Assembly (NCBI GenBank): GCA_004431415.1
Contig: QPMI01000408.1
Span: forward strand, 868,001 to 932,000
DNA: 64,000 nt
DNA from: Cyanophora paradoxa CCMP329
Lineage: Eukaryota; Plantae; Glaucophyta
Direction: 5' to 3'
Below, one piece after another: positions 2,973 through 33,096 of the stretch. Positions within the stretch are counted from its first letter, which is position 1; each line of letters opens with the position of its first letter. The notes beneath the pieces were generated by a model. That model did not search any database and had not been told where the DNA came from. It was given only the letters and a program-made list of their open reading frames with translations. The translations under genes were made by a program, and so were the position numbers.

Positions 2973-5431
2973 CGCCCAATATACCATTTTTTGCTGAGCC
3001 AGCACTATAGAATCGATGCAAGCATTTTCGAGTGGGTCTCGGACCGCAGCGCGTCGAAGTTCAAGCTCCTATTTTCAACTGAATTTGGCTTTGAACGCCG
3101 AGCCCACCTTTGCGTGGTCGATGCGCACTGCTTTCTAATTAAAGATAAGAGAACGTGCGAGATGCAGAAGTGCAGAGCCTGCGGAAAGATGCAGTATGAT
3201 TTGGCGACTCACAAGGAAACCTGCCGCTTCTGCTATACCTGCCGCTGCGCCTACAATCCGAAGGAGGACCATGCAAGCAAATGCGATGAAGCAGTGAGGA
3301 ACAAGAGCGTTATTGAACGCAAAATCAAGCCATGCGAGCCCGAGGAAGAGTTTACAGCCCTAAACTCAGTCATAGCGGCAGACTTTGAAACGTTTGCACC
3401 CAACCGCACGACCCACGTTCCGTACGCAGTCGATATGGACATAATTAGCAAAGGAGAGATCACGGAAACGAAATCGTTCTGCGGCCCCGAAACTCTGGAA
3501 CAGTTTATGCTCTGGCTTGACGACTGGAAAGAAAAGTCGACTCTAGTATTCTTCAATGGCAGCGGCTTCGACTTGATATTTATCTATAAGTGGCTTGTCC
3601 AGAACCGCCCAGACTGCCAGGTCAAGGTGATGCGCTCATCCGGAAAGATCAAGAGCATGGAGTGGAAGACGCTGGCTGGGGGAGAGTTTAAAAGCTTTGA
3701 CCCCTGTTTGCACATACAGGGCTCACTGCGGCAGGCTGGGAAGGACTACGGGTGCACCACCTTGAAAGGGGATTTTGACCACCGAAAGATAAGAGCGTGG
3801 GATGACGTTGAGATTCACAAGGAAGCCTGGAGCGAATATTTGAGAGCTGACGTTCGGTCGATGACTGAGCTGTATATTAAGTACGCTCGGACATGTTTTG
3901 ATCTGTTTGGGATCAATGTGAATTCGAAGCGCACCTTGACAGCATCGGCGATGGCTTTTCAGATCCACAGGCAGCTGATGAAAACGGAAGTGCTGCTACC
4001 GAAATACAAGGAGGACCAGATTTTTCGCAAAGCGATTTACGGAGGGCGATGCCTACCATTCAAGCGGAAGTTTGTCTCGAAGGGTCCAGATGATTACTTG
4101 GTAGATCTGGATGTGGTCTCTCTCTATCCGACGGCTATGTACTTTAATTACTTTCCCACTGGTAAATTCAAATGCATCACCGATCAAGCGGAGCTAGAGC
4201 GATTCCGCAAGTTTATGCTGAGCAGGAAAATGGAACAGCTGTTTGTTGCAAAGATTAGCGCTAAAATTCCTCAGGATCTTGTGCTCTCTCCCCTTCCCCG
4301 CCACGAAGCCAATCTGGGATGGTCTAACTTGAAGCCTATTGAGAAAGAAATGTACACCTCAGTCGATATCTACCGGGCAATAGCACTGGGAGTTGAGATC
4401 ACAGAGCTGCACGAGGTGTACTTGTTTGAGGGCAAGGAACGAATGTTCAAAGATTACATTGAGAAGCTGTACTGCATGAAAGCACGCTCACGAAAGGGAC
4501 CGCCCAGTATGCTACGGCGAAGATCCTCTTGAATGGGCTCTATGGAAAATTTGCTCAGCGTCCAGTAATTGAGACAACCGAGCTGGTCTCAAACTACAGA
4601 CGATTCAAGGAGATACAGCGATCATCGACGATTACAGACATTGACATAGAGAATGATACGAGAATGTACGTCACATTTGAGATCCCTGAGTATAGGCGGG
4701 ATGCCTGCGTTTCGAAGCCTTGCTTTGTTGGTGCATTTATCCTCTCCTACAGCCGCGAAATCATGGATCGATTTTTGGTGAGGATGAACTCATATAAGGA
4801 CGTAGAGGCAATGCCATACTACACAGATACAGATTCTATGATCGTGCACAGGAGGTTTGCTGAGCTTCTGAAGGACTGCATGAAGCAGCCATATTCAGTT
4901 GAGGGAATGTCAGAGGAGGAAGGGAATAGAATGATCTGCGAGAGCGAGCTGGGGAAACTAGATTATGACATCCAAGGGAGAATTACTGAGGCTTACTTCA
5001 TTGGCCCAAAGGTTTATTGCTGCTACTTTGTGAGGTCGAATGGGGAACCAGATCTGCATGTGCGGGCAAAGGGAATTCCGAAGAGCTGGATAGAGGAGAA
5101 CTGGCTCCCGAGTGATCCAGTGGCAAAGAAGGAATCCCTTGATAACCGAATTGCTTTGGAGGCCTTCACAAGGATGCTAGAGGAACGTTATCAGCCGCAG
5201 TGCACACTAGATTCTAAACTAGCGCGTGTTTTCAAGCCCAATGGAAAGCAACGCGATGCTGGGATCGACTTCAGCTCTATAATTCAGATTCCATTCAGCC
5301 GAATACTCAACAAAACGGAGTATACGAAACGAAAGATTATTCCTGACGAATATTACAGCACGGTTCCCCATGAATACGTTCGAGCAACAGGCGGCAGCCA
5401 AGAAGGCAACCTTGACTTTGTCGATCTCTGA
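2973..5431 (+). CDS. protein-primed family B DNA polymerase, second lineage; 5'-truncated; one frameshift near 4498
   Basis: ADFET (ExoI), FNGSGFD (ExoII), DVVSLYPTAM, KILLNGLYGKFAQ, YTDTDS, GPKVY; adding one G to the GGG run joins ORFs 2991-4532 and 4529-5431. Confidence 0.9.
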
Positions 5432-8400
5432 TGCTTACTATGATCCTGAGACAGGGCTCCAGTCAGCTGCACGGATAGCTAAGAAGCTGAAGATGCCGCT
5501 GGCAAGGGTGCAGGCAGTGCTCGCGAAGCTGTCCACAGCTCAGCGCTTTGCAAAACCGGTGAAAGAGAAGCCGTACACCAGTATCACGTATAATCACCCA
5601 GAGAAGTATTATGAAGTGGATTTGATCGATGTCAGTCCCTATGCTAGAAGCAACCGCGGAGTGCACTTCATCATGAACGCTGTGGATGTTGTAACCCGGA
5701 AAGCGTACAGCATCCCAATGAAAATAAAAGCGAGGGGACCCTGCTTTCGACACTGCGGCAGCTCATAGCAAGCTTTCCGGTGAAGCCCGATATCATTCAG
5801 ACGGATCAGGAATTCAAGGCTACAGCTGCAACTATGCTAGCAGCCGAGGGGATAAAGCACAATGCTGTCGAGGCGCATCGTCCGCAGGCAAATGGAAAGG
5901 TAGAGCGCTTTAATGGTACTCTGAAGCGGATCATTGCAAGATACATGGAGGCGTACGACACCGACCGATATATCGATAAGCTGCCATCCTTTCTGCGCAA
6001 CTATAACAGCTCCGAGCATAGAGCTATTAAAACTACGCCTGATGAGGCAGCAAAGAACCCAGCACCTGTTATTGCAAGAAACGATTATCAGAGAGAGGCG
6101 TACGAGCAGCAGCACTATCTGAAAGAGGCCGAGTTCAAGGTAGGAGACTCTGTGCGCGTAAAGCTGGCGAGGAACACGTTTGATAAATCAACGAAGCCGA
6201 CGTACTCAAAAGAAGTCTATCAGATTGAAGCTATAGGAGGATTTGGCCCTCTGCTCAAGTTCAAGCTTGCTGGATACGACAAGGAGGTGAGCTACCAGCA
6301 GCTGCTGAAAGTGCCAGCAGAGACAGAGCAGCGGCGGGCTGGAAGTGCTGCACAGAATGCCCTTCGCCGTCGAAAGCAGGAGCTGAATTTGATGCAAGAG
6401 AATCTGGACAAGTCAGACATCGAAAAAAATAAGAGACTTCTCCGGGTTCAAAAGCAGCTGCTTACTGCTGGAACCAAGGTGTCGGATAGGAGGATTCCCA
6501 CCCGATTGGGCGCCCGCGCGGTCCAGCGCGGGGCCGGCTCCCTGTGCTGGAGCAGCTGTAGATGCAGGCTGGTGTATTCTCTGTGTACCCGGAAGACTAC
6601 TGACACTGTACCCCTAGGATAGGTAGAGGCAGGCCAGCGTAGGCTACCGCGAGGTAAACCTACAGGAAGAGAGACTATGCTAAGGCACCGTAGACTGCGT
6701 CAGGCACCAACTAGCTCTAGTCACTAAGTCACCGCAAGGCCAGGGAATCGAGCCATGCGACAACTCCTCTTCCGCTGACGTCGCGTCCGCGCGACGTAGC
6801 CAGTCAAACCGTGACTCGGGTCGGCATAACCGCAAGAGAGCGTCCCCAACACCGCCAATGGGTGCGCCGCTCGAGGGCACCGACAGGCCCCAAGACGAGG
6901 AACCTGAGCCACAGCCCGGGGGCAGGAATGCAGACAGCTGCAGGCCAGGGAGAAGGCCAGGTAGATCCCGTCCAGGTCGATCCCGTCCAGGTCGTCCAGG
7001 TCGTGTGCAAGGCAAGGCAGGGTGAGGATGAGCATGCATATGCGTGCGTGCGTGCGATAAGCTCGGAAAGGGCAGAAAAGCATAAAAATCGCAGAAAGTG
7101 ATACTGGCCCGAAACTCGCTCCGTACGGCGAGCACCGCAGGAGAGGGGCACGGATGGGAAGTTTCACCGCCTCGGAAGAAAACAACGAGGAGGTATCCGG
7201 GCCACCCATCAGGCCCAACGAAAGAGCGGGGCACGATAGAGTGAGCCGCCGACTACACGCCTTTCTGGGCCGTGCACCAACGAAGCCCCACTCTACCACT
7301 CCTCTGAGCTCTAGGGCCCACGCTCCAGAAAAGGGAACGAAAGTCGTCAAGGAGCCAACACGCCACCGACCCACACTTGGCCCGACAAGACAGCGCAAGT
7401 GTGATCGGCCGACGTCTCCGAGAGAGGACAAGGCTGAGGCAAAGCTGGCAAAGAAATCTGCCCCCGCACCACATCTCACCACGATCACAGCGTCGCCCTC
7501 GGCATCCCCTCCTGGGATCCTCGGCGCCGACAGTAGGGGCGAAGTATGGGTTTTGTTCAGGATGGTTGGTAGAGGTTCGCCCGTACCTCCGAGTACTCCA
7601 GTCCTCCGTCTTGACTCGCAATTGTTGACTTGAGCCTCCGATCTCGATCGCGATCCAAGGGCGGCCAGTTGTCGAGCGGCGACCGTACGCGTGGCCACGG
7701 GTGCACGCTCAGACGGCCGACCCTTGAGCCGCGCGGCGGTTAAGGGTAGCAACGTCAACGCTTCAACAATATCGATCCCGTGGCTTCACGCGCGCTAGCG
7801 TTAACGTTCCCATAGGGAATTGCGTAAGAAGCGCAGGGAGCGTAGGGAATGCATATATCTATGGCCTTGGACGAGATGGGGCGAGGACCGAGACCGAGCC
7901 CTCGTTCTCGCGGTGTGCATGGCAGCGCTTGCGCTCGGCTGCTGGCGATGAAGCCAGACGACGATGCTCAAGATGGACGTGGCCATCGTCAAGACATGGC
8001 ACGCGTGCTGGCCGCGAAACCCATCGGTCGTTCCTTAGGCCTGGTCTTCCTGTGATCTGGCTCTAGCCAGGCTCGTTGACGAGCTTGACGGACCATGATC
8101 GCAGGAAGGGGTGCTGCAGCGATCCGTGAGACTGCATGTTCACGGTGCCGAGACCCTCGAGATATTGGGAGTCCTGTTTGCGCATAGCCGCATCGTTACA
8201 CGGCATGCAGTCGGCCGCTGAGATCCGATTCCGTTCCTTAAAATGCCGCATCAGTGAGTAGTGAGAACGGTGCACTGGCCGTAGCTGGGCTCTCAAGCTC
8301 TGTCGAAACAGCACTTGCCAGTCCGTTCCGGACACGGTCACCGGCAGTGCGCGTGACAACAGGGCCTGAGGGCCGTCAGCCCCAGTAGCACCGCCACCGA

Positions 8401-11400
8401 TGGGTTTCTGAGGCGGAGGGTGGTCCGCCAAGGGCGAGACCCGGATCCCGGCAAGCCGCCGTGTGAGAAGGCCTCAGGGCGGTTGCAGTTTGGCTAGGTT
8501 CAGTCGACGTCGCTCAGCCTACGCTCAGCCTACGGACCGCAGCTCCAATCCGTAGCCGGCGCGACTGTGCATGCACACTCGAGTCTGACTCAGTGATCCC
8601 GACTCCTCTTCCGCTGAAGAGGGAAAGTCGGGGCGTGCCATGGTGGCAGGCACACGCCAATCGGGGAGGTGCTCTGGCGTCTGGCCAGGGGGCAGCCTTC
8701 TGCTGGGGCGCCGGTGTACGTACTCCTCTTCCGCTGAAGAGCGGAAGCGGGTGTCTGTGCACGTACACGTACTCCTCTTCCGCTGAAGAGCGGAAGCCGT
8801 AGCACAGCGAACTGCTCTCGATACCACCCCCCTTCGGTGAAGCACCGTCCCCGGTGCTCCACCTTCGAGGTTTCATTTGGATTTGCGAAAACTCTGGCCC
8901 TCTGGAGCCACGAGGGCCCGTGCGCGTGAATGGATCGGGGCGGCGTTATTCGCCGAAGAAATTCGCGAATGCAGCTCGAAAGTACGGTGCCATGGCGTGG
9001 CAATGCACAACCACGACCGTCTCTCTTTCCCGATCGCGAGCTGCAGCTGCTTTCTAGCTTTTAAGCTCTTCGCGATCCAAGCTCACGTGACCCGCGGATA
9101 CGGGGTCTTCGGTTTGAATTGGGCCCAGGGTGTGGCCGATCGCGATTGCGGAGGCCGGTTACGTATATGTATATGTATACGTACTACGGTAAACGCCAGG
9201 CGCATCGAAGGGCTCGTCGTTTCGCCAAGTTGCGATTAAATCGAGTGCCGCTCTGTCGGGCTCAAACACGTCGAGCGTCGAGCTCGAGGGGATCGAGGCT
9301 TGAGTGCACGCACGTCAGTCAAGCTTTCAGAACACGGCGCCGGCTTTGCATAGCATAGCGCTTGCAATCGGCTGCATGTGCCAGTGTGCCTGCGGCTTGT
9401 GGCGTTGGTCATGACCCGTGCCAGAGACAGCGCTTCCACGTTTCGCGGCTGCGGGCCAGGCGTTGCGGGCTAAACCTTCAGGGGCGCGCCACTGCCGGAA
9501 TAAGATCCTGGGTCGCCGCCGTCGGGTGCGAAATCGATAACTGTATCGAGTTCGGTCCCACGCTTATTTGTGTGCGCAAATGGCTGAGCTGCGGGGCAGA
9601 ATTTAAGGTCCGCCGCGCCACTGCCGGGAATAAGATCCCGGGCCGGCCGCAGGAGCGAAATCGCTCAGTAGCGTATCGAACTCAAGGATCACGTGCACCG
9701 AGACGGGTCCCGGGCCTGTCCGCGCGACACTGTGACGGGGCATGCACAGGCGCCGCGTCTGCGCCACGGCGCGAAACTGCGTGCGCCGAGGCACCGGGCA
9801 GAATGCGAGCTTCACCGCCACCCGAGCACGAAATTTACGGTCGAGCTTGTAGCCTATACTGTGTAGGCTATAGCTACACCTCGTTTCCATGCCGCGGCGT
9901 TGTAGTGTGATCGCGAGATTGGATCGCAGGATCGCCGTAGCGCGATCGCGAGATTGGGCCGCAGCCACGTACGCGTGCACTTCGCGTCAGAGCCACACTT
10001 CGCTGAAGGCACACGTGGTGCATTGCCGAACTTGGGGGCCGTGCAGGGCTGCTGGCCATGGCCCCGAGGGCAGGCTGGACATGGTCGCGAAATCGCCACT
10101 TTCGAATTCGAATTCGAATTTGAATTTCGGAATCCTTTGAACGCAGTCGGCCGGCCGCGGGCCTAGAATTCGAATTCGAATTCGAATTTCGGAATCCTTT
10201 GAACGCAGTCGGCCGGCCGCGGGCCTAGGCCGGAGCAGGCTTGAGTTTTGACCCGCGATCGCTCGGTATGAGTAGCGAGTTTCCGAGCCTCGCTGCGAAA
10301 ACCACGTGCGTTCAATTTTCGCGCACGTACGCGTGGACCATGATCGGTGTGATGGCATGCGCGTGCCGCAGTGCCACGGCACGTGAACGCCAGCTCAAGG
10401 CGGGTTGGACCCCATGCTGGCTGCTTCATAATCATGATCATGGCATGCGCCGGTCTACCGCCTCGCCACAGTGCGATCGCGTTTCGCGGGCCGCTGGGCA
10501 GGCTGCCAGGGCCATGTCGTGGTGCGAAAATCTAACTTTCGGCACTGCGGCAAGGCTAGCGCCACAGCTGGCGCTAGTGCAGCGAGGCCGGGCGCTGGAG
10601 CCGCTGAGTTTGCCGCGGCCGGGCGAGCCGGTGCTCAGGGTTCCAATCGGAACGGCAGCACTGCTCTTGCAATGGACGGGCTATAGCTATAGCGCTGCCA
10701 GCGCCGCTCAGCCACCCTCGCCGCAGCGTTGCAGTGCGCCGCGGCGCGCGGCTCGGCGCGGATGCGTATGCCTGTCTCGGTGCTTTCGAATTCGACGGGT
10801 ATCCAAGTGCCATGCGCGGTTCTGCACCTGTCCGACGGTCGTCCCGAATTCGAACCCCGGTCCGGTGGCTTCGAATTCGCCAGTCACCGTCCCGCGAATT
10901 GTGTGGCTACAGCTGACGGGCCGGGGCCGTCGATGCATCGATCGAGGCTTGTCCGACGGTCCGTGCCACAGCTGGCCAGGGTCCGGGCTCGAGGCTCAGG
11001 GCTGCGGCGCAGCCTCGGAGGGGACTGCAGGCACGGGCATCGAAGTCCCGTTGCTCCGCAGTGTCATCATCTGATATTGATGAAGCGGGCCGGGGGCGAG
11101 GCTCGAGCTCGCGCTGCGGCCCGACGTTTTCGCGGTGCTCATGACCAAGGCCCGAACTCACGGCCGCGCTGCGTGCGCCTTCCGGCCCGCGGGGCCAGAT
11201 GCTCAATCAGTGAGAGCGGTACTAGTGTCTCGGCGGGCTCAGCGAGCTCGCGGCCGGGCGGTTTTCGCCGCTTTTAGCCCGTAGCTTCGCCAACCTAGAG
11301 CGCCAGCCTCGAGTTCGGGCACGGCCCGGCGGCGAAGCTGAAGTTGCTGAACTCGAGCTTAGGCTTTGAGAGACAAGCTCAGAGCAGAACTCGCCGAGTC

Positions 11401-14400
11401 GGCATCGGCCGTGACCAGATCTAGGGCCTTAAAGCTCGACGGTCTCATCGCGATCGTCTGCCCGGCCGCGGGCCGGCGACGGGTTTTCGCGAGGCCGAGG
11501 CTCGCCGCGAATTCGCTGAGCTCCGGCGACTCGGCGAGACGCCAGCTCAGCGGCTGACAGGCGAGCTATGACCGCCGAGCCGGCGCCCAGGCCCAGGCCT
11601 AGGCCGCCTCGGGGCTCGCGGGGCCCGGCCCGGGGCCGTACGCCCAGGACGCCCATATGCTTCAGGTGAAGGCGTGCGCAATCAGACATCGATTATCGCC
11701 GAGTCGGCTCGGACTCTCGGCTGCAGGCTCTCGGATATCGATTCGCCATATCGCCGAGCCGATTGTCTTGGATGCACGCAAAAATTGGACGCGGATCCGC
11801 TACGTATACGCCCTTAACAGCTTGCTGGCGCTGGCCGAGGCCTTCGGGCAGCCTTCGGGCAAGCCTTCAGGCTGGCCGAGGCCTTCGGGCATCCGCTACG
11901 CCTTTGTCATCGGCAAGCCTTCGGGCAGCCTAGGCCTGGCACCACCGTGGCACGGAGGCGCCAGCTCGAGAGAGCCTCGGGGGCCGCAGTTGCAATCGCA
12001 TTTGAGGCGCCGCGGCGAGCGGTTTCATCTGCTTGCCGCAGTGCGCAGCCTCTCGCATCCGGCGTCCGCTGGGCCACTATAGCTAGCAGCGCCCGCGGCC
12101 AAACACCGATCGGATCCGAGCTCGGAATTTCGAGGCTAGGTGGCGCTCATGATCAGGCCTGCAGCTGGGACTGGGGCCACCAGCTGCAGGCTGGGCCGCA
12201 AGGCCTATGATCATGATCAGCTGGCCCGTACGCGTGGCCAGTGCACGTGGGGCCGCGGATTCACTGGGTCCCGCGGGCCGGCCCGGAGCGCCGGGCCTCA
12301 TGATTGAGACCGTGCGCGTGACCGTGGCTAACGAGTGCCGAGGTGCCGCAGTGCTAGGCGTCGGCGGGCTGAATCAGGGCCACGGTTTGAGTTCGAAACG
12401 GCACTCGCGTGGCCGCGTGATCGCGACTTTCGGCGCCCGCCGGCCACGGGTTGGGAGTCTTGGGACCTAGTTTCGCGCTCGGTCGCGAAAATATGCCGCT
12501 AGCGCTGGGGCGGCGGGCGCAGGCTTAAGAGGACGGCTGCAGCGGGGTTGCGTTCGAGGAGGCTCAGGGCGCCGGCGCCGGCGGTTACGTCCGGCGGTCG
12601 GCTTGTGCAGCCTCGCGCGTCCCGAGTCCGGCGGCCACTCAGCGGCCAGGTCGCCAGCACCGCCGTGGTGCTCGCAGCCAAGCGCGCGCCTATTCGGCGA
12701 GGGTGATGCGCCCGGCGGCCGGCCTCGAGCTCGCCGATCGATATTGCGAGTCGATCGTGGCCGCGGCTGCGCACGCGATCGCGAGGTTCCGGCGCTGTAC
12801 ATGCGCCCGGGCTCGCAGGGCATTCGCTAGATCTCCGAGGCTCATGACCAGCCGCTGAGCCCCAGGCCGCGCTACTGGGCCAGGGCCGCGGGTTGCAGGA
12901 GCTCAAGCGGCAGCTTGGGGGGCCGAGGAGGCTTTTCGCTTCGAATTAGCTGCCACGGGCCGGGTGCCACGGCGCGGGGTAGTCAGCGCTAGCTGCAGTT
13001 GCGATCTGAGTCCGTGCCCAGCTGCCGCAGTCACTGAGTGCAGCTGCAGCTGCAGCCGAGTTCGGTTTGCGAATGCAAAGCGATTTGCAGCCCGCGAAGC
13101 GCGTGGCCGCTGGTTGTGGGGCCCTGGCCAGGAATCGAAGCCGCAGGGGACAGGCTTGGCGCGCGAGGCGCCGCCAGCGGCTGGGCCTTAAGCTTGTAGG
13201 GATCCGTGCTTGGACCCGTGCTTGCTGGGCGTTGCAATTGGATCCGTGCTTGCAACGCCGATCGGCAGCTGCAGCTGTGCACGCAGCGGCAGGCGACGCC
13301 AGCACGGCGCCGTCGGAGTCATTCGAATTTCGCATGCTTCACCGCAAGAAAACTCGTAGGGGTCGAAGGCAAGGGGCCTCCGCGGCCGAGCTCGAGGCTC
13401 GTGCGGGGTGAATTTCCCGGTTTCGCGGGCCGGATCATCGGATCCCCGAAGGGCCCTGCTGCGAAAACGGTATACCATGATAGCCCGGCGGATAAGCAGT
13501 ACGCTGGCAGCTCGCGCTACGGCGGCACTGCGAAAAGCGATTTGAAGTGCACCGTACGCGTGGCACGCCGAGGGCGAGCCATGGGCCTCGCTATAGACCC
13601 TGGCGGCGGCTGCTGCCCAGCCGTGGGTACAATTCGACGGCCGTGCGGGGCACTGGCGTAATGATCGGCCCGGCGGCACTTGGCGGCATGCACGCCCAAC
13701 TTGGCGATCATCGGATCGCGAGCCACGGAGCCCAAGTTCAAGGCTATGAGTGCGAGAGGGGCGTCTTGTGTGCGACCTCTAGATCTAGATCCGATGATCT
13801 GAGACTCGAGATCCGGGCCGGTCACAGGCTCAGCTGTAACGCGGCTTGCAGCCTCAAGGCTTCATGGCCTATAGCTAGGCTTGGTGGCTGAACCTGGGCC
13901 GCAGCGGCGACTCTCCCAGCGAGCTCGAGCTTGAGCCGGCCGGCTTCCCCGCGGCCGGCGCTGACGCTCGTGGCCAGAAGCTTGAGCGAGCCCGGGGCTG
14001 GTGTTTGAGCCCACGAGAAAGCAGCGGCAGCCTGCAGGCAGGTACCCGGTGATGTCCCGGAGCGAGAACCGGAGCTTCTGAAAAGCCTTTGAAGCTCAGC
14101 GGCTCGTGCGAACAGCAAGCTCAGATGGGCTTCATGATCAGGCTAGGGTCCGCTCTCCGAGGGCCCAGGCCCTGAGGGCTCGGGGGACTGAGCTGTGCCT
14201 ACAGTAGCATGTGCAGTGTAATTAAGGCTAGCGCTGGAGCCGGGGTCGCCCGTAGCTAGAGCCTTGAATTCGAAGGCACGTCGCTGGGCCGCGCGCGCAG
14301 CCGGGCCACGAGCTCGAGCTCGCAATCGAGCCTTTGATTTTGCGGCTTGCCCTGTTTGCCCTCACGGCGTCCACTCCCCCTTCTTGCTAGCACCGTCCGC

Positions 14401-16875: not shown

Positions 16876-17137
16876 TTCCAGCGGAAGCTAGGGCACTCTC
16901 AAGTACAGAGATTCGATTTATCAACCGAGTGCGATAGCGCTTGTTTGCCTCGTTGTGAGCATCTTTGTGCGAAGCCTGATATCTGCTGCTCTGCTCAATG
17001 TGTCTCTGGCGATATGCAGGGTCCTCGCTGTATTTTCTGCGGTGGTACTCTGCTTTCTTCTCCCTTCTTGCTTGAATAATCTCTGGCGTAAGAGCAATCG
17101 GTTTGCGCCCTGGTTTGCGACGCTGCGCTGACTCCAT
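16859..17137 (-). CDS. small basic helical protein, putative DNA-binding
   Basis: Homologous to 33037-33372 (TPEIIQARREKKAE vs TPEIVEARRKKRAE); PGRKP/RGRP motif. Confidence 0.7.
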   Translation of the reverse strand: MESAQRRKPGRKPIALTPEIIQARREKKAEYHRRKYSEDPAYRQRHIEQSSRYQASHKDAHNEANKRYRTRLINRISVLESALASAGISVSV

Positions 17138-17560: not shown

Positions 17561-17610
17561 ACTCTGAACTAGGCTTAAAGAGATCGCAATCTCAGATTGT
17601 AAAGAAAGAC

Positions 17611-18760: not shown

Positions 18761-18769
18761 CTTCTGTTC

Positions 18770-19498: not shown

Positions 19499-19507
19499 CA
19501 AAAAATA

Positions 19508-19536: not shown

Positions 19537-19560
19537 CAACTACCGAGATTAGCAGATTCT

Positions 19561-20948: not shown

Positions 20949-20994
20949 TGAAGTGTTTATAATTCAAACGGAAGAAAATAATTCAGCGCTTAGC

Positions 20995-21078
20995 CGCCGG
21001 CGAGCCAGCTTGGCGCAGCGGTCGCTGTGCGGAGCACAAGTGGCTCCTTGCCTTCGGCTTGTCTGCGACTCTGGCGAC
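20995..21078 (-). mobile_element. nested hairpin micro-elements (26-nt outer, 58-nt inner at 21012-21069)
   Basis: 84 nt absent from element C (CGCTTAGC|TCAGTTTG at 37268); inner copy near-identical to 24915-24971. Confidence 0.8.
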
Positions 21079-22034: not shown

Positions 22035-22060
22035 CTTTTTATATCAGTTAGAGAATAAAA

Positions 22061-24451: not shown

Positions 24452-24474
24452 TTTTAAAAGGGGCTTATATAAAA

Positions 24475-26248
24475 ATGTCCTACATCTTGAAGAAGCCAGT
24501 ACCACTTCGTAAAGCTCCAGATTTTGTGGATGATCGGCATATAAATATTCGCGTATTTGGGAGTACTCTAATTGACTACAATGCTGACAAAGATATACAC
24601 CAGACTGAGTTTAATCGCCCAGCTGCATTAATTCTGCGCAACGCACATGTTGGCGCCCCAGATATTGCACAGAGATTTTGTCTGGGTCCAGCTGAGAATT
24701 ATGTTGCTGAAATAATCGGATCCAGGGCGTTGCCGCGGCACCTGCGAATTGCCTCCTCAGGCACAGTTTCCAAATATGATTCTGGTAGATTAATCTTTAG
24801 GCTCCAAAATGATAGAGGGGTCCACACATCAGCTCTACGTCTAATTGATGAATCCAATGCTGTCACAAACAAGACTGCGGCTCACATTACAGGGCGAATT
24901 CTCCTTGGCGAAGAGTCGCAGACAAGCCGAAGGCAAGGAGCCACTTGTGCTCCGCACAGCGACGCTGCGCCTGCTGGAATATCAGTGCTAGCATCGCAAA
25001 TCCAGCCGTTTCCCTGGGATCTACTTTTTACAGCTGCACGAGAAGCGAATATTTTATACGGTTTTGATGTAAATCAAATCGATACTGAGCCAGCCACCAG
25101 GTTAGATATTCCTGGATGCACCTTGGGCTCTATCCTGATTGAAGCTGACAGGCACCTGCTCCCTGCGTTGCATGACAGCTACGATCTAGGGCTCCGCACC
25201 AGGCAGTGGCGAAATATTCATGGAACAAATATTTATCAGGATGGTAAGAAGGTTAGCACTGAAGAGGAGGTGATCAACATTTTCAACTACTACTTCGGAC
25301 CTATTGTCCCTATACCACCTATACCACCTCTTCCAGGGCTACCGAAGCCGCCAACCCCGGACGGCCCAGGTCGAGAGCGAGTTGCTGATGAAACAGTTCC
25401 TTTCGGTCAACATATTGTCAGTTGGGAGCAAGTTCGCAATAAACCTATCTTCGAACCGAAAAAGCAAATAGATGAACAGTATTTACCTCCTGAAATCGAT
25501 ATATTAGAGCTTGAAGAATACCAATTTGTCCAGATGAGGAAGAGTATTTACCTGACGGTTTCGACCCGCAAGAGTATGAATATGATCAATATGACCCCAA
25601 TGAGGAAGAGTATTTACCCGATGGTTTAGATCCACAAGAGTATGAGTATGAACAGAACTATGAACCCCACGAGGATTATTTAGCAGATGGCCTCGAGCCT
25701 CCTGCTGTTGAGTATGCGCAGCCTTATGAACACCATGAGGAATTATTGCCAGATGGTTTACAACCTGAGATTTTTGAGATGTACCTTGACTGGGAGCAGA
25801 TCAACAATAAACCCGCGAGATATCCACCAGAGGATCACAACCATGACTGGGATGAGATCTTAGGTAAACCTGAGAAATATCCACCTGAAGATCACAGGCA
25901 TGATTGGGGCGATATTGATGGAATACCACCTGAGTTTCCGCCGGAAGACCATTTACATATTTGGAGCGAAATACGAGAGCAGCCCACTTTTGCATCAGCA
26001 GGTAATGTTTTACTAGGAGATATTAACAATGGGGTAAGTCTCTACCAAAATATAGACACACCAGAAAGATTACAATTAAATGATTACTATGTGAATCGCA
26101 AAGGAATCGATGCAGGCACCACAATGGAAGGCGAATTATACATTAGACCCCCTACAAGAAATGGAATATTGGGACTTGGTGGTGGTATTGAAATTAAAGA
26201 CACCAAACCAGGTATCTATCTTACCAGCTACTATGCAGATGACATCCC
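24475..26248 (+). pseudogene. large fibre/spike protein, 3'-truncated copy
   Basis: Near-identical to 40642-42358; ends at the junction with host DNA. Confidence 0.8.
24915..24971 (+). mobile_element. 57-nt multi-hairpin micro-element, in frame in the fibre gene
   Basis: Inserted in GAAGA|TGCTGG relative to element C; adds 19 codons. Confidence 0.85.
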
Positions 26249-26375
26249 CGGTTATTGCTCCCTTGCAATTGGTGGCAAGTGCAGTCTGAGTGCGGATGTT
26301 GACTCTGCGCGAGCACGCAGGTTCGAACGTGGCGATGTGTACCAGTGCATGTACCGGTTCAGACTTCGATCTCAT

Positions 26376-26915
26376 AAAAAAATGGTGATTCTGACTACGC
26401 GGTGGGCCCAGCCCCCGGCCCCCACCCTCTCTCCAGATCCTCGCCCCTCCCACACACCCTAGCTACGTCCCCAGCCCCCTCCTTTGAGCTCTCTGGATCT
26501 ACGTCTACCCTAGACCCTAGGGTCAACACCGGCCCTGTTCCCTTTTAGGGAGTATTATAGGAGTACTTTGGAGAGTTTTCTATTGAAAAATCAGGAAGAG
26601 AGAGGCGGCCCCCCATGCGCCGGTCTACCAGCTATCTCCTATGTGATTATTTAGTGTGTGCTTTAGATGTTCCTTGAAGCTAGCTTTTGTTAGGAATTTA
26701 GATTCGGTGATAGTAGTTTATGTTTGTGTTTCCGATCTATCAACAAAAATTTCGTTTAGATTCGGTGATAGTAGTTTATGTTTGTGTTTCCGATCTATCA
26801 ACAAAAATTTCGTTTAGATTCGGTGATAGTAGTTTATGTTTGTGTTTCCGATCTATCAACAAAAATTTCGGCGAGATTCGGTGATAGTAGTTTATGTTTG
26901 TGTTTCCGATCTATC
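26376..26915 (+). repeat. left terminal inverted repeat, with about four 58-bp tandem units
   Basis: Reverse complement of 47306-47729; units start at 26701, 26759, 26817 and 26875. Confidence 0.92.
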
Positions 26916-27059: not shown

Positions 27060-27599
27060 ATGTCGGCGCTAGAGATTACAGTACCGGTCGATGTCCCTGA
27101 GGGAGCAGTTGCAATTCCAATTCATAGCAAATCCAGTATCATAGCCTATGCTCTAGTGTCTGATGTTGATGCAAATCTAATCAGTGGTAAGCGCTGGAAC
27201 CTCGCAAATGGTCATGCTAAGACGAAGTTCAACTCTCAGAAATCAATTCTCATGCAACGAATGATATTTGGATCTATTCATGATGGATTTAACATCACGC
27301 ATTTAAATGGAAATAAACTCGACAACCGCAGGGAAAATTTGCGGCTTTGTACAAAGCGTCAAGAGAACCTAGCTAGGAGTCAAACTTCAAGAAATACCTC
27401 TGGTTATGTTGGTGTAACGATGGACAAGAAAAGGCAAATGTGGCGAGCCAAGTTTATGGTTAATGGTACTTATAAAACAATCGGGCGTTATAATTCAGCA
27501 GAGGAAGCAGCTAAAGCTCGTGATCAGTATGCTATTCAAAATGTTAGTGAAGATGACCGGCATTTTCTACGTCTAAATTTCCCAGCCATTTTAAATTAA
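27060..27599 (+). CDS. HNH-AP2 endonuclease-like protein
   Basis: THLNGNKLDNRRENLR, TSGYVGV, WRAKF, IGRYNSAEEAAKARD. Confidence 0.88.
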   Translation: MSALEITVPVDVPEGAVAIPIHSKSSIIAYALVSDVDANLISGKRWNLANGHAKTKFNSQKSILMQRMIFGSIHDGFNITHLNGNKLDNRRENLRLCTKRQENLARSQTSRNTSGYVGVTMDKKRQMWRAKFMVNGTYKTIGRYNSAEEAAKARDQYAIQNVSEDDRHFLRLNFPAILN

Positions 27600-28077: not shown

Positions 28078-31000
28078 ATGGATCGTCGTTTTGAAATCGC
28101 CAGATATAAAGAACAAATCGCATCAAAGGCCGAATCACTTTATTCGAGGGGTTATATTCACAAAGCATTTAGTAAATCTCTGATTAATTTGACAAATCGA
28201 AATACTCGCTTGGAAACATTGCAGAAGAATGCTTCACTATTGGATGAACTCTCAAATCTCCCCCGGCCTGCAAAGAGAGTATCTTCAAAGACACTGGAGG
28301 TTTCTATTGCGACAGCCCAGGCCGATCTTGTTGCCAGTTTTAGTGAGCTCCCAGATGCAATTGCAACACAGGACACTTCAAGAGCAGTAACTGAGCAGGA
28401 TGGTTCAGTCACAACAGCACTCAATGGAACTTTAGCTGAGGGCACCTATCGCCTTTCTAGGGGCTCAGGAAGGGTGACAGCCATTCAGGCTCACTATGAT
28501 AACAATCAGCATTTTCGAGAGTGGATTACTGTGCCTATCAGTGGAGAGAGGGAAAGGGCTAATGCAGCTCGAATGGGGATAGCATTGAAGATATATGGGA
28601 ATGGACTGTTTAGAAAAGTAGATTCAGATGCAGCACAATCTAGGATGATTGAGCTGCACCAGTACATCAGGATTGAGCTGGGGGCAGATTTAACTGAGGC
28701 AATCAGGAATCAGCTTCTCGCCCTTGATGTCAAAGCTGCTGAAGCCACAACAGATTCCTGGTATTTCGATTCCTGGATCTATATTCAGTGGCAGACTATT
28801 CGCTACTTCAGGAGAATGGGAGGCCGTGGGTTGAGATTTAAATTACCAGAATGGCTGAGAGAAAAGCAAGCATTAATTAACATAGATGCACCAAGTAATA
28901 AATGCTTTCTATATTCAGTTATAGCAGCCAAACACCCTCTAGAGTCAGGACAAGACCCTCGAAGTGCCTGCCACTACAGGTCTTATGAGGGGGAATTTGA
29001 TTGTAAGATGCTAGCATATCCAACCCCACTTGACTCCAAAATGTTCTCAAAGTTCGAGGAGGCAAACAACTTGAAGCTGTGCATTTACACAGTGGCTGTG
29101 GATGAGCAGGACATCATCCCAATCCACATCAGTGCAGGTACTGATGCTATTCCAATCCTGTATGTCCCTCCTGTTGAAGGAACCAGCCAGGTTGGTCACT
29201 ATCTGTGGATAAAAAGTGTTTCGAGGCTGTTCAACAAACATGGTAAGCATTCCCTACACTACTGTTTGGCTTGTCAGAGGGGTTTTGTTACCCAGGAAGT
29301 TTTGAAAAAACATATTGACACAGACAGGTGTTTAGAAAGGAAGGAGCATGGAAGGGACAAACTACCCAAAAAAGGGGATCACATTATAAAATTCAAGCGA
29401 TGGGAAACAACAATTCAACAAAGGCTAGCCATATATGCAGACTGTGAAACACTATGCACTCAAATTGCAGAGATAAACCGAACAGATTCAAAGACTAAAC
29501 AAACAGGTGTCCACCAAATTGCTTCTATAGGGGCAGTTGCTGTATCTACTAGTGGAGAGACAGAGTGGTTTACTAAAATGGGTGGACCTGAGGATGATTC
29601 CGCGGATGCCTTTGTTAGATGGTTGGATGCAAAGGAGCCCGAGTTCATTAGAAAGCTGAAGGAGACAAAGCCAATGAATGCACTTACAGATGAGCAGAAA
29701 GAAGCCCACTATTCAGCTATGGCATGCTATATGTGTGGCAAGCAATTTGAATTTCTGAATGACAAGTTAATGGACCACTGTCATGACACAGGAAACTACC
29801 TTGGTCCAGCATGCAAATCCTGCAACAAAATCAGGTCAAAGCCAAAGTCAATCTCAATCTGGTTTCACAATGGCAGGGGCTTTGACTTTCACCTGCTAGT
29901 GCGTGCATTATCAGCAGGGTATAATCGCAGGATGGTAGCACACAGGGCCTTTAAACAAGAGATTGAGAGAAAGGTTGAAGAGAAAAGGCCAAGAATAATC
30001 AGAACCATCGAGGCTTCCAAGGCAAGAATTATGGTGAAAAATAACTGGAGTGAGCAGGAGTTTGAGCAGCAGAAGGAGAAACTTATAAAGGAAAAACTGA
30101 AACAAGCTTTTGATGCACTTGAGGAACAGTTCAGACCAGCAGACCTGCTTTCAATTAAATTCGACCAGGTTTTCCAGAACTCTGAGAAAATCTCCCAATT
30201 TGTGTATGGCATCTATATCTTTCGCGATTCCTGCCAGCATTTGCTAGGAAGCATTGATGAGCTTTCGAAAGCTTTACCAGATGATCTGAAGAAAATAACT
30301 CGAGCTTTGCACCCTGATGAGGCTAAATTCAAGCTGATGACCAAGAAGGGGACTTACCCCTACCAATATATGACATCATGGGAGAGAATGTTGGAGACTC
30401 AGCTACCAGGTCGTCGTCAGTTTTATAATGAGCTCAAGCAAGAGAAATGCTCTAAAGAGGACTATGCTCATGCCCACAATGTTTGGAGGGAGATGGGATG
30501 CACTACACTGGCTGATTACACTATGACATATATGAAGACAGACATCTCACTGCTGGCAGATGTGTTTGAGAATTACAGGAAGAAGTGTCTTGAGAAGTAT
30601 AAAATAGATCCCAGCCACTATATGAGCAGCCCCGGGTTTGCCTGGCAGGCAGCTCTGAAACATACAGGTCAGGTGTTGGAGGTATTCTATGATGGCCAGC
30701 AGGATATGCACTCTTTCATTGAAAATGGAATCCGCGGGGGTATCTCTATGATTTCTAAAAGGTATGCTAAAGCAAACAACAAATGGGTTGACAAGTATGT
30801 GGTTGGTCACAAACAAAAGCAAGGCTGGCTACTTTACCTTGATGCCAACAATTTGTATGGCCTTGCAATGAAGCAGAAGCTTCCAACTGGAAGATTCAAA
30901 TGGGAGGACCTGGAGGGTATTACAGACCTTCAACAGTACATCACAGACTTAGATGCAGAGGGAAGCAGAGGCTATGCCTTGGAGGTTGACATGCACTGCC

Positions 31001-32151
31001 CAGAGGAACTACATGATTATTTCAGTGATTATCCTCTAGCCCCAGAGCGCATGTGTGTTTTGAAAGAGCATCTATCAAAAGCTCAGAGCGCTATGATTGA
31101 AGCAGAGAAGCTCAGCTCGATAGAGAGAACTGAAAAGTTGGTACCAAATCTGCTTCCAAAAGAAAAGTATGCAGTTGATGTGAGGGCACTGCAGTTCTAC
31201 ATTTCACAAGGAATGGTGGTAACTAAAATTCATAGGGTACTCTCCTATGATCAGTCAGCCTGGCTTGCCCCATTCATTGATTTCAACACACAAGAGAGGC
31301 AGAAAACACCATTCAAACATGAGCAAGATTTGTATAAACTGATGAACAACTCAGTGTATGGCAAAACCATGGAGAATGTGAGGAATCACTGCAACTCAGA
31401 GTTGGTGACTGATGGTGAAAGATTGGCCAAAATAAACACTGAACCTAACAGGTTAAAACAGGTTGTTGTTTATGATGAAAACTTAGTTTATGTTTCAAAA
31501 CGAAAAAGTGAGTTTAATCTCAACAAACCCATTTACTGCGGCTTCTCGATTTTGGATGTATCAAAGATTCACATGTACAGGTTCTACTATGAAGTACTTA
31601 AACCGCTGTGGGGGCAGCGAGTTAGGCTTCTGGGTACTGACACAGATAGTTTGATGTTGGAGATTGAAACAGAGAACATGTATGTTGATTTGAGAAACAT
31701 CAAACAATATCTTGATGTTGGAGATTATCCTGACAACCATCAGTTCTTCGAGGGGATGACTACTGATGAGATTAAACATCTAAAGAGCCTAGCTAAAACA
31801 CCAGGGCTTTTCAAGGATGAGTTAAAGGGCATTCAGATGATTGAGTGGATTGCTAATCGACCTAAATCATACCACTGGACCTCAGAAGATAAAGAGAAGA
31901 CAGTGTGCAAGGGTGTTAAAAAAGCGTTCAATAAGAAGCTTACCAGAGACAGATACTACGAGTGCATTTTCGGAGGGAAGGCCTGTAATATTGAGGGCAT
32001 TGTTGGATTTAAATCGAACAAACATCACATTTATGTTCAAAAATCAACTAAACAAGCCCTGCACCCCTTGGATACAAAGAGGTACCTTTGTGATGATCAG
32101 TTCACCACCAGAGCGATTGGTCATTACTTAAACAAAAATCTCGCCAATTAA
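28078..32151 (+). CDS. protein-primed family B DNA polymerase, full length, with OTU-like and endonuclease VII-like domains
   Basis: NKCFLYS...GHYLWIKSVSRL, YADCE, DHCHDTGNYLGPACKSCN, HNGRGFD, YLDANNLYGLAM, KLMNNSVYGKT, TDTDS. Confidence 0.95.
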   Translation: MDRRFEIARYKEQIASKAESLYSRGYIHKAFSKSLINLTNRNTRLETLQKNASLLDELSNLPRPAKRVSSKTLEVSIATAQADLVASFSELPDAIATQDTSRAVTEQDGSVTTALNGTLAEGTYRLSRGSGRVTAIQAHYDNNQHFREWITVPISGERERANAARMGIALKIYGNGLFRKVDSDAAQSRMIELHQYIRIELGADLTEAIRNQLLALDVKAAEATTDSWYFDSWIYIQWQTIRYFRRMGGRGLRFKLPEWLREKQALINIDAPSNKCFLYSVIAAKHPLESGQDPRSACHYRSYEGEFDCKMLAYPTPLDSKMFSKFEEANNLKLCIYTVAVDEQDIIPIHISAGTDAIPILYVPPVEGTSQVGHYLWIKSVSRLFNKHGKHSLHYCLACQRGFVTQEVLKKHIDTDRCLERKEHGRDKLPKKGDHIIKFKRWETTIQQRLAIYADCETLCTQIAEINRTDSKTKQTGVHQIASIGAVAVSTSGETEWFTKMGGPEDDSADAFVRWLDAKEPEFIRKLKETKPMNALTDEQKEAHYSAMACYMCGKQFEFLNDKLMDHCHDTGNYLGPACKSCNKIRSKPKSISIWFHNGRGFDFHLLVRALSAGYNRRMVAHRAFKQEIERKVEEKRPRIIRTIEASKARIMVKNNWSEQEFEQQKEKLIKEKLKQAFDALEEQFRPADLLSIKFDQVFQNSEKISQFVYGIYIFRDSCQHLLGSIDELSKALPDDLKKITRALHPDEAKFKLMTKKGTYPYQYMTSWERMLETQLPGRRQFYNELKQEKCSKEDYAHAHNVWREMGCTTLADYTMTYMKTDISLLADVFENYRKKCLEKYKIDPSHYMSSPGFAWQAALKHTGQVLEVFYDGQQDMHSFIENGIRGGISMISKRYAKANNKWVDKYVVGHKQKQGWLLYLDANNLYGLAMKQKLPTGRFKWEDLEGITDLQQYITDLDAEGSRGYALEVDMHCPEELHDYFSDYPLAPERMCVLKEHLSKAQSAMIEAEKLSSIERTEKLVPNLLPKEKYAVDVRALQFYISQGMVVTKIHRVLSYDQSAWLAPFIDFNTQERQKTPFKHEQDLYKLMNNSVYGKTMENVRNHCNSELVTDGERLAKINTEPNRLKQVVVYDENLVYVSKRKSEFNLNKPIYCGFSILDVSKIHMYRFYYEVLKPLWGQRVRLLGTDTDSLMLEIETENMYVDLRNIKQYLDVGDYPDNHQFFEGMTTDEIKHLKSLAKTPGLFKDELKGIQMIEWIANRPKSYHWTSEDKEKTVCKGVKKAFNKKLTRDRYYECIFGGKACNIEGIVGFKSNKHHIYVQKSTKQALHPLDTKRYLCDDQFTTRAIGHYLNKNLAN

Positions 32152-32153: not shown

Positions 32154-33096
32154 ATGGCCCCGAGATTCATAATAACAGCTCCACCTGGAAGTTGGCAAGT
32201 CGACATTTTATTTATTGGGAAATTTCGTTTATTTGCAGCCGTGGAAATAGCCAGCCGATTTGCAATTGTTAGAAAACTTGAAGACGCAAAGCAAATCCCT
32301 GCGTTTATATCCAAGCTTCCCGGGATCTGGGGATTCTCTGGAGATAATGGCTTTAACACTGTAAGGATTCTCTGTAAGGGCAATGGCAGAGGCTAATAGG
32401 TTGAAAATGCACACTGATGTTGCCAAAGATGATCACATTTCGAAGGGGGACAAGCTAGGAGTTATCGATCGATTTGCAAGGACATTGCGGGCGATTATAG
32501 AGAAAGACTCAGAGTCCAGAGGCTCCCCCCACTTCCTTTCAAGGCTGCCAACCCTGGTCAGAGCTTATAATGAAACAAAGCACTCAGCCTTTGGAGGGGA
32601 GTACTCTCCAGCATGGATGCACAGCCATAGGCAGGTTGCAACACAGCTGCATTTAGTGAGGCAGAGGCAAAACGATATTGAGAGGGATGCAATGAATGTA
32701 CCAAAACCAGGCACAGAAGTTCAAATATTGGAACCCAAGCCAAACATATTTGCAAAGGGAACAACAAAACAAAGCAAGGAAACCTATGTTGTTGTAGGTC
32801 AGGAAGGCAACCGCATTAGAGTGGCAACAAAAGACGGGACTGTTTTAAGTCGCAGAGTCAAACCATCCGAGATTAAAACACCTAAACAGCTGCCAGATCA
32901 AACAAAAATAATCAAAGCAAAAGCAAAGGCCAGGCAAGAAACTCAATTACGTAGAGAGGGCTTGATCGATTCCAAAAAGTTTAGTTCTCAGACCAAACAG
33001 GCCCGAGAACTTAAGAGATTGGAAATTGCAGGAGAGTCAGCTCTGCGTGCTGGTGCGAGAGTTGATCGCGGCTACAGCAGCTTGAAGAGCAAGTAA
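32154..33096 (+). pseudogene. rve integrase of element C, frameshifted near 32362-32374
   Basis: Collinear with the intact integrase at 53906; WQVDIL, GDNGF, LGVIDRFARTLR; lesion is not a homopolymer slip. Confidence 0.85.

Follow-up and report, generated by a model that had tools for sequence, protein, structure and literature searches.

A graded and patchy capsid-side mosaic between two endogenous polinton-like viruses with different polymerase-integrase modules

How the replication and capsid modules of polinton-like viruses (PLVs) reassort is an open mechanistic question, for which the published evidence, in the parts of the literature covered here, consists mostly of incongruent trees and a handful of contigs. 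Mosaics of replicase and capsid genes, tandem arrangements and the algal elements treated below have all been published already. The portions of the polisuvirus report drawn on here (10.64898/2026.10.13.758929) describe tandem elements that, like those in our locus, carry homologous or nucleotide-identical morphogenic modules together with different replication genes, and in which pPolB likewise travels with a DDE integrase. One entry of that report, EVE_QPMI01_83, bears the WGS prefix given for C. paradoxa in Table S1 of PMC10120064; it is described there as a pair of transpoviron-like elements together with an AEP gene, and it does not match the locus analyzed here. PMC10120064 itself reports endogenous PLVs of Cyanophora paradoxa, with 366 MCP hits listed for the species.

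Two polymerase classes on related elements have also been described elsewhere, in the sections of the following papers that were available. Nematode Polintons carry pPolB1 and pPolB2 at 16% median identity on close elements of one genome, one of the two classes bearing an HNH-type insert (10.1101/2023.08.22.554363), and both classes belong to Group 2. Alpha and Beta adintoviruses (PMC8502044) possess two PolB classes, one matching pfam03175 and the other less than 30% identical to it; some Alpha polymerases sit on Beta virion modules, and related Alpha-like proteins are mentioned in C. paradoxa contigs. EMALE02 of Cafeteria burkhardae (PMC8547959) is an endogenous recombinant, one arm of which has its homolog in a sister type, and GC-rich retroelements lie within the AT-rich proviruses of that system; both features recur here.

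Elements in the window and their class

The window (the whole analyzed stretch of 64,000 nucleotides) holds four elements, A, B, C and D, within 55 kb. B (2993-26248) and C (26398-47707), set apart by a 149-bp spacer (26249..26397) between truncated B and the left TIR of C, are integrated copies of one endogenous PLV family, whose host is likely the glaucophyte Cyanophora paradoxa. Element A (2..2125, plus strand) retains the 3' part of a C-type pPolB (2-1024; 40% amino acid identity to that of C) and an rve-type integrase (1067-2125; 30% to those of C and D), followed by a minus-strand DUF5710 ORF (2115-2462; Pfam PF18974) and a 133-bp tandem array (2549-2972; Tandem Repeats Finder) that is likely a sub-terminal repeat of A and stops abruptly at B. 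Element D (52068..54841, plus strand) comprises a 5'-truncated C-type pPolB, 47% identical in amino acids to that of C, and an unbroken integrase; tblastn with C proteins as queries found no capsid-module genes near it. An exact look-up of 10 window proteins in the protein collection returned no match.

Element C is 21.3 kb long and is bounded by 402-bp TIRs (left, 26398..26799, plus strand, where a 58-bp tandem array continues to 26927; right, 47306..47707, minus strand) that differ by 9 mismatches in 402 bp (97.8% identity), dimensions that fit a 15-30 kb TIR element. Its flanks, TGACTA and GCAACG, show no target-site duplication. Upstream of its polymerase lies an HNH-AP2 nuclease paralogue (27060..27599, plus strand; Pfam), 48-49% identical in amino acids to the other two. 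The genes that C shares with B (33037..42363) are orfX, a small ORF, an HNH-AP2 nuclease, a 210-aa ORF, the ATPase (35051-35782), an unbroken major capsid protein (MCP) of 462 aa (35834-37222), the pentons, a lipase and the 5' part of the fibre gene; the right arm (42360..46934, plus strand), with the fibre 3' part and three paralogous ORFs, has no counterpart in truncated B.

The capsid module of B begins with an A32-like packaging ATPase (18770..19498, minus strand; PF04665, E 8.8e-10; 92% amino acid identity to C), a match obtained for both elements at E 8e-10 to 9e-10; a Pfam 'Zot' hit on the same protein was weak, below cut-off and overlapped the A32 match. It continues with the MCP (19561..20948, minus strand; 96-97% amino acid identity to C; one frame break near 20257), putative penton 1 (21079-22034, minus strand), a putative penton 2 named as such by an earlier sequence-only reading of this DNA (22061-22978, plus strand), a patatin-like lipase (23909-24451, minus strand; patatin PF01734) and a fibre-like gene with tail-fibre PHROGs that is cut at 26248. 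Neither penton has a Pfam or PHROG match; the Atlas leads for penton 1 were DUF5901 clusters (13-17% of members) and Sputnik V18/19 (26%), at 0.97-0.98 and with recognition below threshold.

The MCP of C is 63% identical over its full length to a 456-aa EukProt protein of Cyanophora paradoxa, which is entered as an MCP in Table S2 of PMC10120064 (HHpred 98.47% to iridovirus MCP). Atlas feature matches to Capsid_N clusters (0.97-0.98) are a weak lead by recognition score, and a single-sequence fold of the MCP was uninformative (pLDDT 29.5). Among 7990 candidates scored, the MCP homology search returned a single relative, which is from an alga; animal Maverick capsids were not among its results. 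No viral contig searched contained a relative of the MCP or the ATPase, and no metagenome contig searched one of the MCP. An adenain-like cysteine protease gave no family match among 35 window proteins (Pfam) or 15 (PHROGs), a search that a very divergent one could escape. By its match to the published C. paradoxa protein, the MCP is assigned to the double jelly-roll type that characterizes PLVs, and by its MCP, ATPase, replicase and integrase, and TIR length the family belongs to the endogenous PLVs (Polisuviricotina). The protease, target-site duplication and Maverick-type MCP that mark a canonical Maverick/Polinton (adintovirus) were not found.

Replication modules and the integrase junction of B

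Both B and C encode a replicase and an integrase, recognizable by pPolB motifs A, B and C and by integrase D..D..E motifs. The pPolB of B (2993..5431, plus strand) carries DVVSLYP (4110), LNGLYGKF (4529) and YTDTDS (4820) and has a frame break near 4495; it is 5'-truncated, with a frame still open upstream of the ATG at 3162 and full-length relatives that possess ~340-400 extra N-terminal residues. The main part of its integrase (5370..6479, plus strand; D..D..VERFN, with VERFN at 5900; PF13683 rve_3, E 5e-8) has a frame break near 5720, and the integrase tail lies at 16764..16875 (plus strand). The Maverick-like pPolB of C (28078..32151, plus strand; 1357 aa) contains DANNLYG (30841), MNNSVYGKT (31342) and an endonuclease VII insert (~29686-29832, residues 537-585; PF02945, E 4.7e-7). 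Its integrase (32154..33096, plus strand; D..D..IDRF, with IDRF at 32464) is split in two frames near 32360-32380, where a short stretch is locally duplicated, and the halves are 69% and 55% identical in amino acids to the unbroken integrase of D. These motifs and the insert had all been named by the sequence-only reading, and we found each of them where it had been placed.

The polymerases of B and C are 21.6% identical over 385 aa, and the C-parts of their integrases 24.9% identical over 205 aa. The polymerase of B matches PF03175 at 154.7 bits and that of C has no match at E<=0.01, a behavior that would fit B as Alpha-like and C as Beta-like. We recovered 5819 relatives of the C polymerase with E<=0.001; the best 120 are 40-45% identical over residues 700-1357, and animals are the source of the named relatives among them. 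Neither polymerase matched a solved structure. In a tree of 46 trimmed sequences (22 of 149 B relatives, 20 of 120 C relatives and 4 window proteins), whose relatives were chosen by similarity to each query, B and C fall in two deep clades, as had been anticipated, and not in one shallow clade; A and D group with C, and the patristic distance is 4.26 for B-C versus 1.0 for C-D. These results support two deep lineages of pPolB, each paired with an integrase of its own, on one capsid family.

The 3' end of the B integrase is interrupted by a GC-rich, 10.3-kb LTR element (6480..16763) with identical 283-bp LTRs (6480-6762 and 16481-16763), TG..CA ends and a 5-bp target duplication, CAAGG; its two longest frames have no Pfam match. 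The element is absent from B-type contigs of four public runs, which join the B polymerase or integrase directly to the two ORFs that follow. In three of the four runs a contig of 3134 bp spans 4094-6479 plus 16764-17514, and in the fourth one of 1928 bp spans 5388-6479 plus 16764-17603. Because these contigs bridge the junction without the LTR element, the passage from the B integrase to the small ORF is real, and the suspicion of a chimeric assembly at 16764 fails; the four runs stem from no more than three samples, and the source of the window may be among them. Contig support for the B phase reaches ~17600.

B is cut at both ends. On its left the repeat array of A is fused to the inside of the B polymerase, at a junction that none of the listed contigs bridges, and a contig of run X18 extends 817 bases further left of the B pPolB with different sequence; on its right, contigs run on past 26248 with C-like fibre sequence. 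The frame breaks at 4495 and 5720, and several in the capsid block, are missing from the contigs, and we therefore reject decay as their explanation. B-type polymerase contigs differ from the window by 0-1 substitutions over ~3.5 kb, which hints at a recent spread.

The identity profile between B and C

Between penton 1 and the fibre B and C are nearly identical, as the sequence-only reading had pointed out. A recently shared block (B 20554..26248, C 36828-42358) runs from the MCP 5' third through the fibre-like gene and includes a 248-aa-type ORF, with 8 substitutions in 920 aligned bases (99.1%) across B 20554-21557 and 2 in 4605 (99.96%) across 21558-26248. Within it B has three short insertions relative to C, plus single-base indels. 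Reading the insertions as spliced introns is not supported: they lack target duplications, the coding ones are multiples of three, and GT..AG removal would leave the frame of C unrestored. A single viral contig matched their pattern, apparently by chance.

Next to the integrase, identity is at its lowest. The first gene of B with a homolog in C (33037-33372) is orfX (16859..17137, minus strand), at 36.9% amino acid identity over 84 aa and dS 1.75. Protein homology starts at this small ORF just after the integrase, in agreement with the sequence-only reading, and nucleotide homology begins at 17255. An old-divergence zone (17225..18568; 79.8% nucleotide identity, 261 differences in 1289 aligned bases) contains a small ORF (17225-17560), an HNH-AP2 nuclease gene (17611-18180; Pfam HNH_3 and AP2) and the 3' part of the 210-aa ORF, with dS values of 1.27 and, for the nuclease, 1.03, placing the latter among the most diverged genes. 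It is followed by a short, recently exchanged patch (18569..18853; 97.5%, 7 differences in 283) over the 5' end of the 210-aa ORF and the 3' end of the ATPase; apart from this patch, the integrase-to-penton stretch is 80-88% identical. Like the LTR insertion and the truncation of both ends of B, this drop goes unmentioned in the sequence-only reading. The four genes beside the integrase have 37, 50, 77 and 89% protein identity and dS of 0.6-1.75. Across nine gene segments from the integrase to the pentons, dS is 1.75, 1.27, 1.03, 0.63, 0.87, 0.50, 0.17, 0.015 and 0 (ATPase 0.87; MCP 0.50/0.17; pentons ~0), a gradient with one reversal, from 0.63 up to 0.87, and with imprecise values above 1; the fibre was left out of the series, and the dS of the patatin gene is inflated by a displaced indel. 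Since silent sites show the gradient too, we reject the idea that it merely reflects fast-evolving small genes, and the low dN with high dS of the ATPase and MCP indicates age under purifying selection.

Four identity changepoints each lay beyond all 100 permutations. Switch points inside the B MCP fall near 20099, 20248 and 20554, delimiting patches with 1 difference in 20099-20247, 36 in 20248-20553 and 2 up to 20990, and near-identity begins ~3.7 kb past the module edge, within the MCP gene. The sequence-only reading had proposed a recent swap of the pPolB-plus-integrase block, with both products side by side. Such a swap would predict near-identity at the module edge; as identity is lowest there and the edge genes are near silent saturation (dS 1.75, 1.27 and 1.03), it is not supported. 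Nor are B and C reciprocal products, as they share one right-hand block and correspond to a donor-type copy and a recipient. A polymerase swap cannot be dated from near-identical capsid blocks. The replication modules of B and C are likely an old difference, and the recent event was probably a patchy exchange of the block from the MCP 5' part through the penton and lipase genes to the fibre.

Variant letters in the contigs bear on direction. At all 4 B/C-aligned sites left of 20050, C has the contig letter that differs from B, and at 23 of 24 sites right of 20100 it has that of B, in a test of 28 sites taken from 40 variants listed out of 292 and picked for differing from B. In run X1, the letter of B has a depth of 574 of 2539 at 20044 and the B/C-shared letter 587 of 2413 at 20104, both close to the B polymerase contig depth of 592, contig depth not being copy number. 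The depths suggest that B belongs to a minority lineage, present in several near-identical copies, and that the block in C was received. C lacks the three short insertions of B, one of which occurs at high contig depth, so the present B copy is not the literal donor.

Explanations and comparison with known systems

We think it reasonably probable that two long-separated lineages with unrelated polymerase-integrase modules still trade capsid-side DNA by homologous recombination. Crossovers presumably could not form within the polymerase-integrase block, which would also have to stay matched to the element ends; the genes beside it would therefore be exchanged rarely and age with it, and distant genes would be overwritten often. 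The portions consulted of 10.64898/2026.10.13.758929 describe pPolB as paired stably with the DDE integrase and loosely with capsids. More tentatively, the latest event may have copied the MCP-5'-to-fibre block of the B lineage into a C-type element, the partners being integrated copies or else viral genomes that replicated together, after which B at this locus would have lost both ends and gained the LTR insertion. The mosaic of C is read from the window assembly, and the tract is traced up to 26248, where the right end of B is missing.

A related possibility, which we regard as open to considerable doubt, is a single virus population whose capsid genes recombine in one pool, with two ancient replication-integration alleles that exclude each other and are kept as a balanced polymorphism, the neighboring genes forming strata of decreasing age as at a sex-determining locus or supergene. 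If so, each allele would come with separate ends, and perhaps with a separate lifestyle (self-replication in the nucleus versus helper dependence), within the same capsid.

It is unlikely that the right-block near-identity is partly or wholly an assembly artefact, through misjoining of copies or majority-rule polishing. The many single-base homopolymer indels of the window that are missing from contigs do indicate that this is a long-read-type assembly with imperfections, in a family of many copies (584-2043 contigs per run over 10 kb), and majority-rule polishing at 95% similarity is published practice for such genomes, according to the part of PMC6704402 covered. However, B and C share a minority or contig-absent letter, not the family majority, at many tested sites; a single misjoin would leave one breakpoint and not several alternating patches; three insertions and 10 substitutions separate B from C inside the block; and the old divergence beside the integrase and the B junction are independent of it.

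Accretion and deletion in a tandem array, a model proposed in the consulted part of 10.64898/2026.10.13.758929, would fuse one replication arm to the next capsid arm by internal deletions and without repeated allelic exchange. Four elements in 55 kb, the fusion of the A array into the B polymerase and the cut in B before C are what it would produce, and the two ends of C, lacking a target-site duplication, may stem from different insertions. Against it, the two copies stay collinear and aligned across all switch points, in keeping with homologous exchange; the short patches within them require double crossovers or conversion; the TIRs of C match at 97.8%; and the A|B fusion is found in none of the listed contigs. 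We consider this account improbable.

That the elements' own nucleases drive exchange by cutting rival copies would accord with the presence, within the replication modules or next to them, of three HNH-AP2 genes and an endonuclease VII domain, and homing has been suggested in the literature as a driver of replicase turnover; with the HNH gene among the most diverged and the recent tracts 0.4 to 3 kb away, we judge it very unlikely here. Least credible is one recent pPolB-plus-integrase replacement in an element that is identical elsewhere: beyond motifs the modules show no relationship, the penton-fibre block reaches 99.9% identity and such events are known from nematodes (10.1101/2023.08.22.554363, in part), but there all non-polymerase proteins, including the integrase, remain highly similar, and for B and C four integrase-side genes at 37-89% amino acid identity (dS 0.6-1.75) already contradict it.

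The locus also differs from each described system, as far as the covered parts of those reports extend. In the nematode case (10.1101/2023.08.22.554363) the polymerase alone was replaced and the integrase is ~80% identical, whereas in B and C both differ and their neighbors are old. Among the close polisuvirus copies, which lie on metagenome contigs, the replicases belong to different classes (PolA versus AEP, or unnamed; 10.64898/2026.10.13.758929); B and C, unlike these, both carry pPolBs of deep lineages, with graded identity and switch points inside the MCP. Adintoviruses (PMC8502044) have animal hosts, an adenain protease and Maverick-type capsids, and were compared by protein clustering rather than by breakpoints. 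In EMALE02 (PMC8547959) an unrelated capsid module was swapped in at a single edge, whereas a homologous one was patchily homogenized here, and PMC10120064 is a catalogue by MCP that, in the parts covered, makes no between-copy comparison of replication modules. What is new here is the nucleotide-level gradient within one genome. The locus records the process at base resolution, as old linkage by replicase and recent patchy exchange in the capsid gene, and as the likely host can be cultured and has hundreds of such copies, the tracts can be mapped, and their direction and the part played by the TIRs can be tested.

Layout of the virus pieces

The window contains four polinton-like virus pieces (A to D), mostly of 40–50% GC, embedded in GC-rich host-like DNA. 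The sole relative found for the major capsid protein (MCP) is a EukProt protein of Cyanophora paradoxa, at 63% identity, and the EukProt proteins of that species also include a piece of the B polymerase at 97% identity, so that this glaucophyte alga is, on sequence grounds, the likely host. The former protein is also catalogued as MCP in PMC10120064, where 366 MCP hits are given for Cyanophora paradoxa.

Element A (2–2972) ends in a 133-bp tandem array that stops at 2972. Its order is unlike that of C (polymerase, integrase, DUF5710 ORF, then this terminal-type repeat array), and the element may lack capsid genes or be arranged differently. The array is fused to the inside of the B polymerase in a manner that looks like a tandem deletion, as in the model proposed in 10.64898/2026.10.13.758929; none of the contigs displayed bridges the fusion.

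Element B (2993 to 26248) carries in its integrase a 10.3-kb LTR element (6480–16763) whose 283-bp LTRs are identical and which is flanked by a 5-bp target duplication. Because the LTRs are 100% identical and the longest frames hold no recognisable coding domain, this insertion is probably non-autonomous and of very recent date. Contig depth is high for its LTR family.

Element C (26398 to 47707) is bounded by 402-bp terminal inverted repeats (TIRs) with 9 mismatches between them. Comparison of its flanks (26376–26397 and 47708–47729) revealed no target-site duplication; in each, A7-TG lies at a distance of exactly 13 bases from the end of the TIR, and the two hold a related short repeat, a pattern that may reflect a target preference or be a sign of ends from different insertions. 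The right arm of C (43888–46934) encodes three paralogous ORFs with a common N-terminal region (37–42% amino acid identity) and no family match. Element D (52068–54841) is a remnant comprising a third C-type polymerase-integrase pair (47% and 55–69% amino acid identity to C, respectively), with silent sites saturated relative to C and no capsid genes found nearby. A 107-bp tandem array, which contains internal palindromes, closes the window (63656–63996).

Six tiny GC-rich elements of 27–84 bp share a common head and tail: 19507–19536 (+), 20994–21077 (−), 22064–22090 (+), 24915–24971 (+), 33456–33482 (+) and 33859–33885 (+). They lie where genes begin or end, with one instance within the fibre gene, keep frame where coding, differ in presence among genomic copies, and are found without target duplication and nowhere in the host-like sequence of the window. 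Adding a hairpin to the 27-bp form yields the 57-bp one, which is nested within another copy at 20994.

The B junction and other B copies

A chimeric assembly at the B junction was weighed against contig sets from four public sequencing runs (X1, X3, X17 and X18, at most three samples), with contig records matched between two comparisons by length, depth and coordinates. The junction is real: a 3134-bp contig in X1, X3 and X18 (mirrored in the last) joins 4094–6479 (its positions 1–2388) to 16764–17514 (2384–3134) without the LTR element and without substitutions relative to the window, and a 1928-bp contig in X17 spans 5388–6479 and 16764–17603. Since these contigs join both sides of the insert, the B polymerase, integrase, orfX (the small minus-strand ORF directly after the integrase) and a small ORF are linked in copies lacking the LTR element. 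Across 16764–26248, 65–72% of sampled words are present in 20 of the 23 runs listed.

The bridging contigs lack the frame breaks seen at 4495 and 5720, which are likely assembly errors. The B polymerase is 5'-truncated at this locus; its relatives are about 340–400 residues longer, and one contig extends to the left by a further 817 bases of different sequence. B-type contig depth is 4.9–5.2 times that of an A-unique contig in three runs, a rough sign of several copies. The contigs also contain a second, related B-type polymerase and integrase (4068–4168, 5985–6114), about 90% alike in conserved parts only and at roughly half the depth of B; this polymerase stands at about 2.8 times the A-unique depth. 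On another contig, the gene model P0124 joins a retrotransposon RNase H region to a piece of B-type polymerase, and retroelements may therefore have hit B-type copies repeatedly.

Old replication modules beside stepwise capsid-side identity

All motifs that the sequence-only reading had listed for the parts of B and C were present, and its inventory of parts is correct. The B polymerase (pPolB, the polinton-type DNA polymerase) matches PF03175 with 154.7 bits; that of C has no such match at E≤0.01 and carries an endonuclease VII domain. The PF03175 result for the pair fits the Alpha/Beta split of PMC8502044. The two polymerases are 21.6% identical over 385 residues (the B frame break read through with X), and the integrase C-parts 24.9% over 205 residues. 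Of 7991 candidates scored, 5819 are relatives of the C polymerase (best at 40–45%); that of B has 1455 in a representative library, where the top full-length relatives reach 33–39%. A tree was built from 46 trimmed sequences and 487 columns (22 chosen from 149 relatives of B, 20 from 120 of C, and four from the window). A, C and D share one of its two clades and B belongs to the other, with patristic distances of 4.26 for B–C versus 1.0 for C–D; its unlabelled relatives were picked by similarity to each query, so that it gives the depth of the split rather than Group 1/2 membership.

Over 8780 columns, a global alignment of B 17225–26248 with C shows 481 differences. In a recursive changepoint analysis the splits fell at 18569, 18854, 20554 and 21558, all four exceeding every one of 100 permutations, with successive nucleotide identities of 79.8%, 97.5%, 87.9%, 99.1% and 99.96%. 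Protein identity rises from 37% in orfX through 50, 77, 89, 92 and 96–97% to 99–100% in the pentons, and dS falls along the genes (1.75, 1.27, 1.03, 0.63, 0.87, 0.50 in the MCP C-half, 0.17 in the N-half, 0.015, 0), with dN at or below 0.054 in ATPase and MCP. Within the MCP gene, differences are dense to 20098, then number one in 20099–20247, 36 in 20248–20553 and two to 20990. Such steps and alternating patches cannot arise from a recent swap of the pPolB-plus-integrase block at the integrase edge, as had been proposed; the recent event is a capsid-side exchange, not a polymerase swap. The profile can be explained by several homologous exchanges that differ in age, and we take it to resemble sex-chromosome strata.

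Direction, mechanism and known systems

The direction test used 28 of 40 variant rows (12 in the LTR were dropped) from 292, all chosen for differing from B. C has the alternative contig letter at 4/4 sites left of 20050 and the B letter at 23/24 right of 20100. In X1, depth is 574 of 2539 for the B letter at 20044–20047, and for the letter common to B and C 587 of 2413 at 20104–20118 and 552 of 1441 at 25814, near the 592 of the B polymerase contig. Given these depths and letters, and with the caveat that contig depth is not copy number, the simplest reading is that B alleles form a minority lineage and that C changes from the commoner to the B type inside the MCP gene. The C letter is not a clear majority at 18755 and 19693, and at five right-hand sites zero X1 depth is left for the B/C-common letter. 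C lacks three short insertions of B in the block from the MCP 5' part through pentons and lipase to fibre, and hence this particular B copy, in its current form, was not the donor.

Three points are established: the divergence beside the module is old, the identity further off is recent and patchy, and the B module is linked to the family gene order. The polymerase-integrase block would stay whole, dragging neighbouring genes along, because it would offer no usable DNA homology and because, according to 10.64898/2026.10.13.758929 (section 11), pPolB and the DDE integrase probably work on shared genome ends; capsid-side genes would be swapped by crossover or conversion, among either integrated copies or free genomes.

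Replicase-capsid reassortment has been called common, and tandem copies whose morphogenic genes are identical at the nucleotide level but whose replicases differ are described (both 10.64898/2026.10.13.758929), as are polymerase-only swaps in nematodes (10.1101/2023.08.22.554363), Alpha polymerases on Beta virion modules (PMC8502044) and a recombinant endogenous virophage (PMC8547959). In the titles, abstracts and passages covered, mostly of open-access papers and preprint main texts, no silent-site gradient between two pPolB lineages sharing a host is described, nor are switch points within the MCP gene. The B/C locus is a real, well-preserved case of a known kind of mosaicism.
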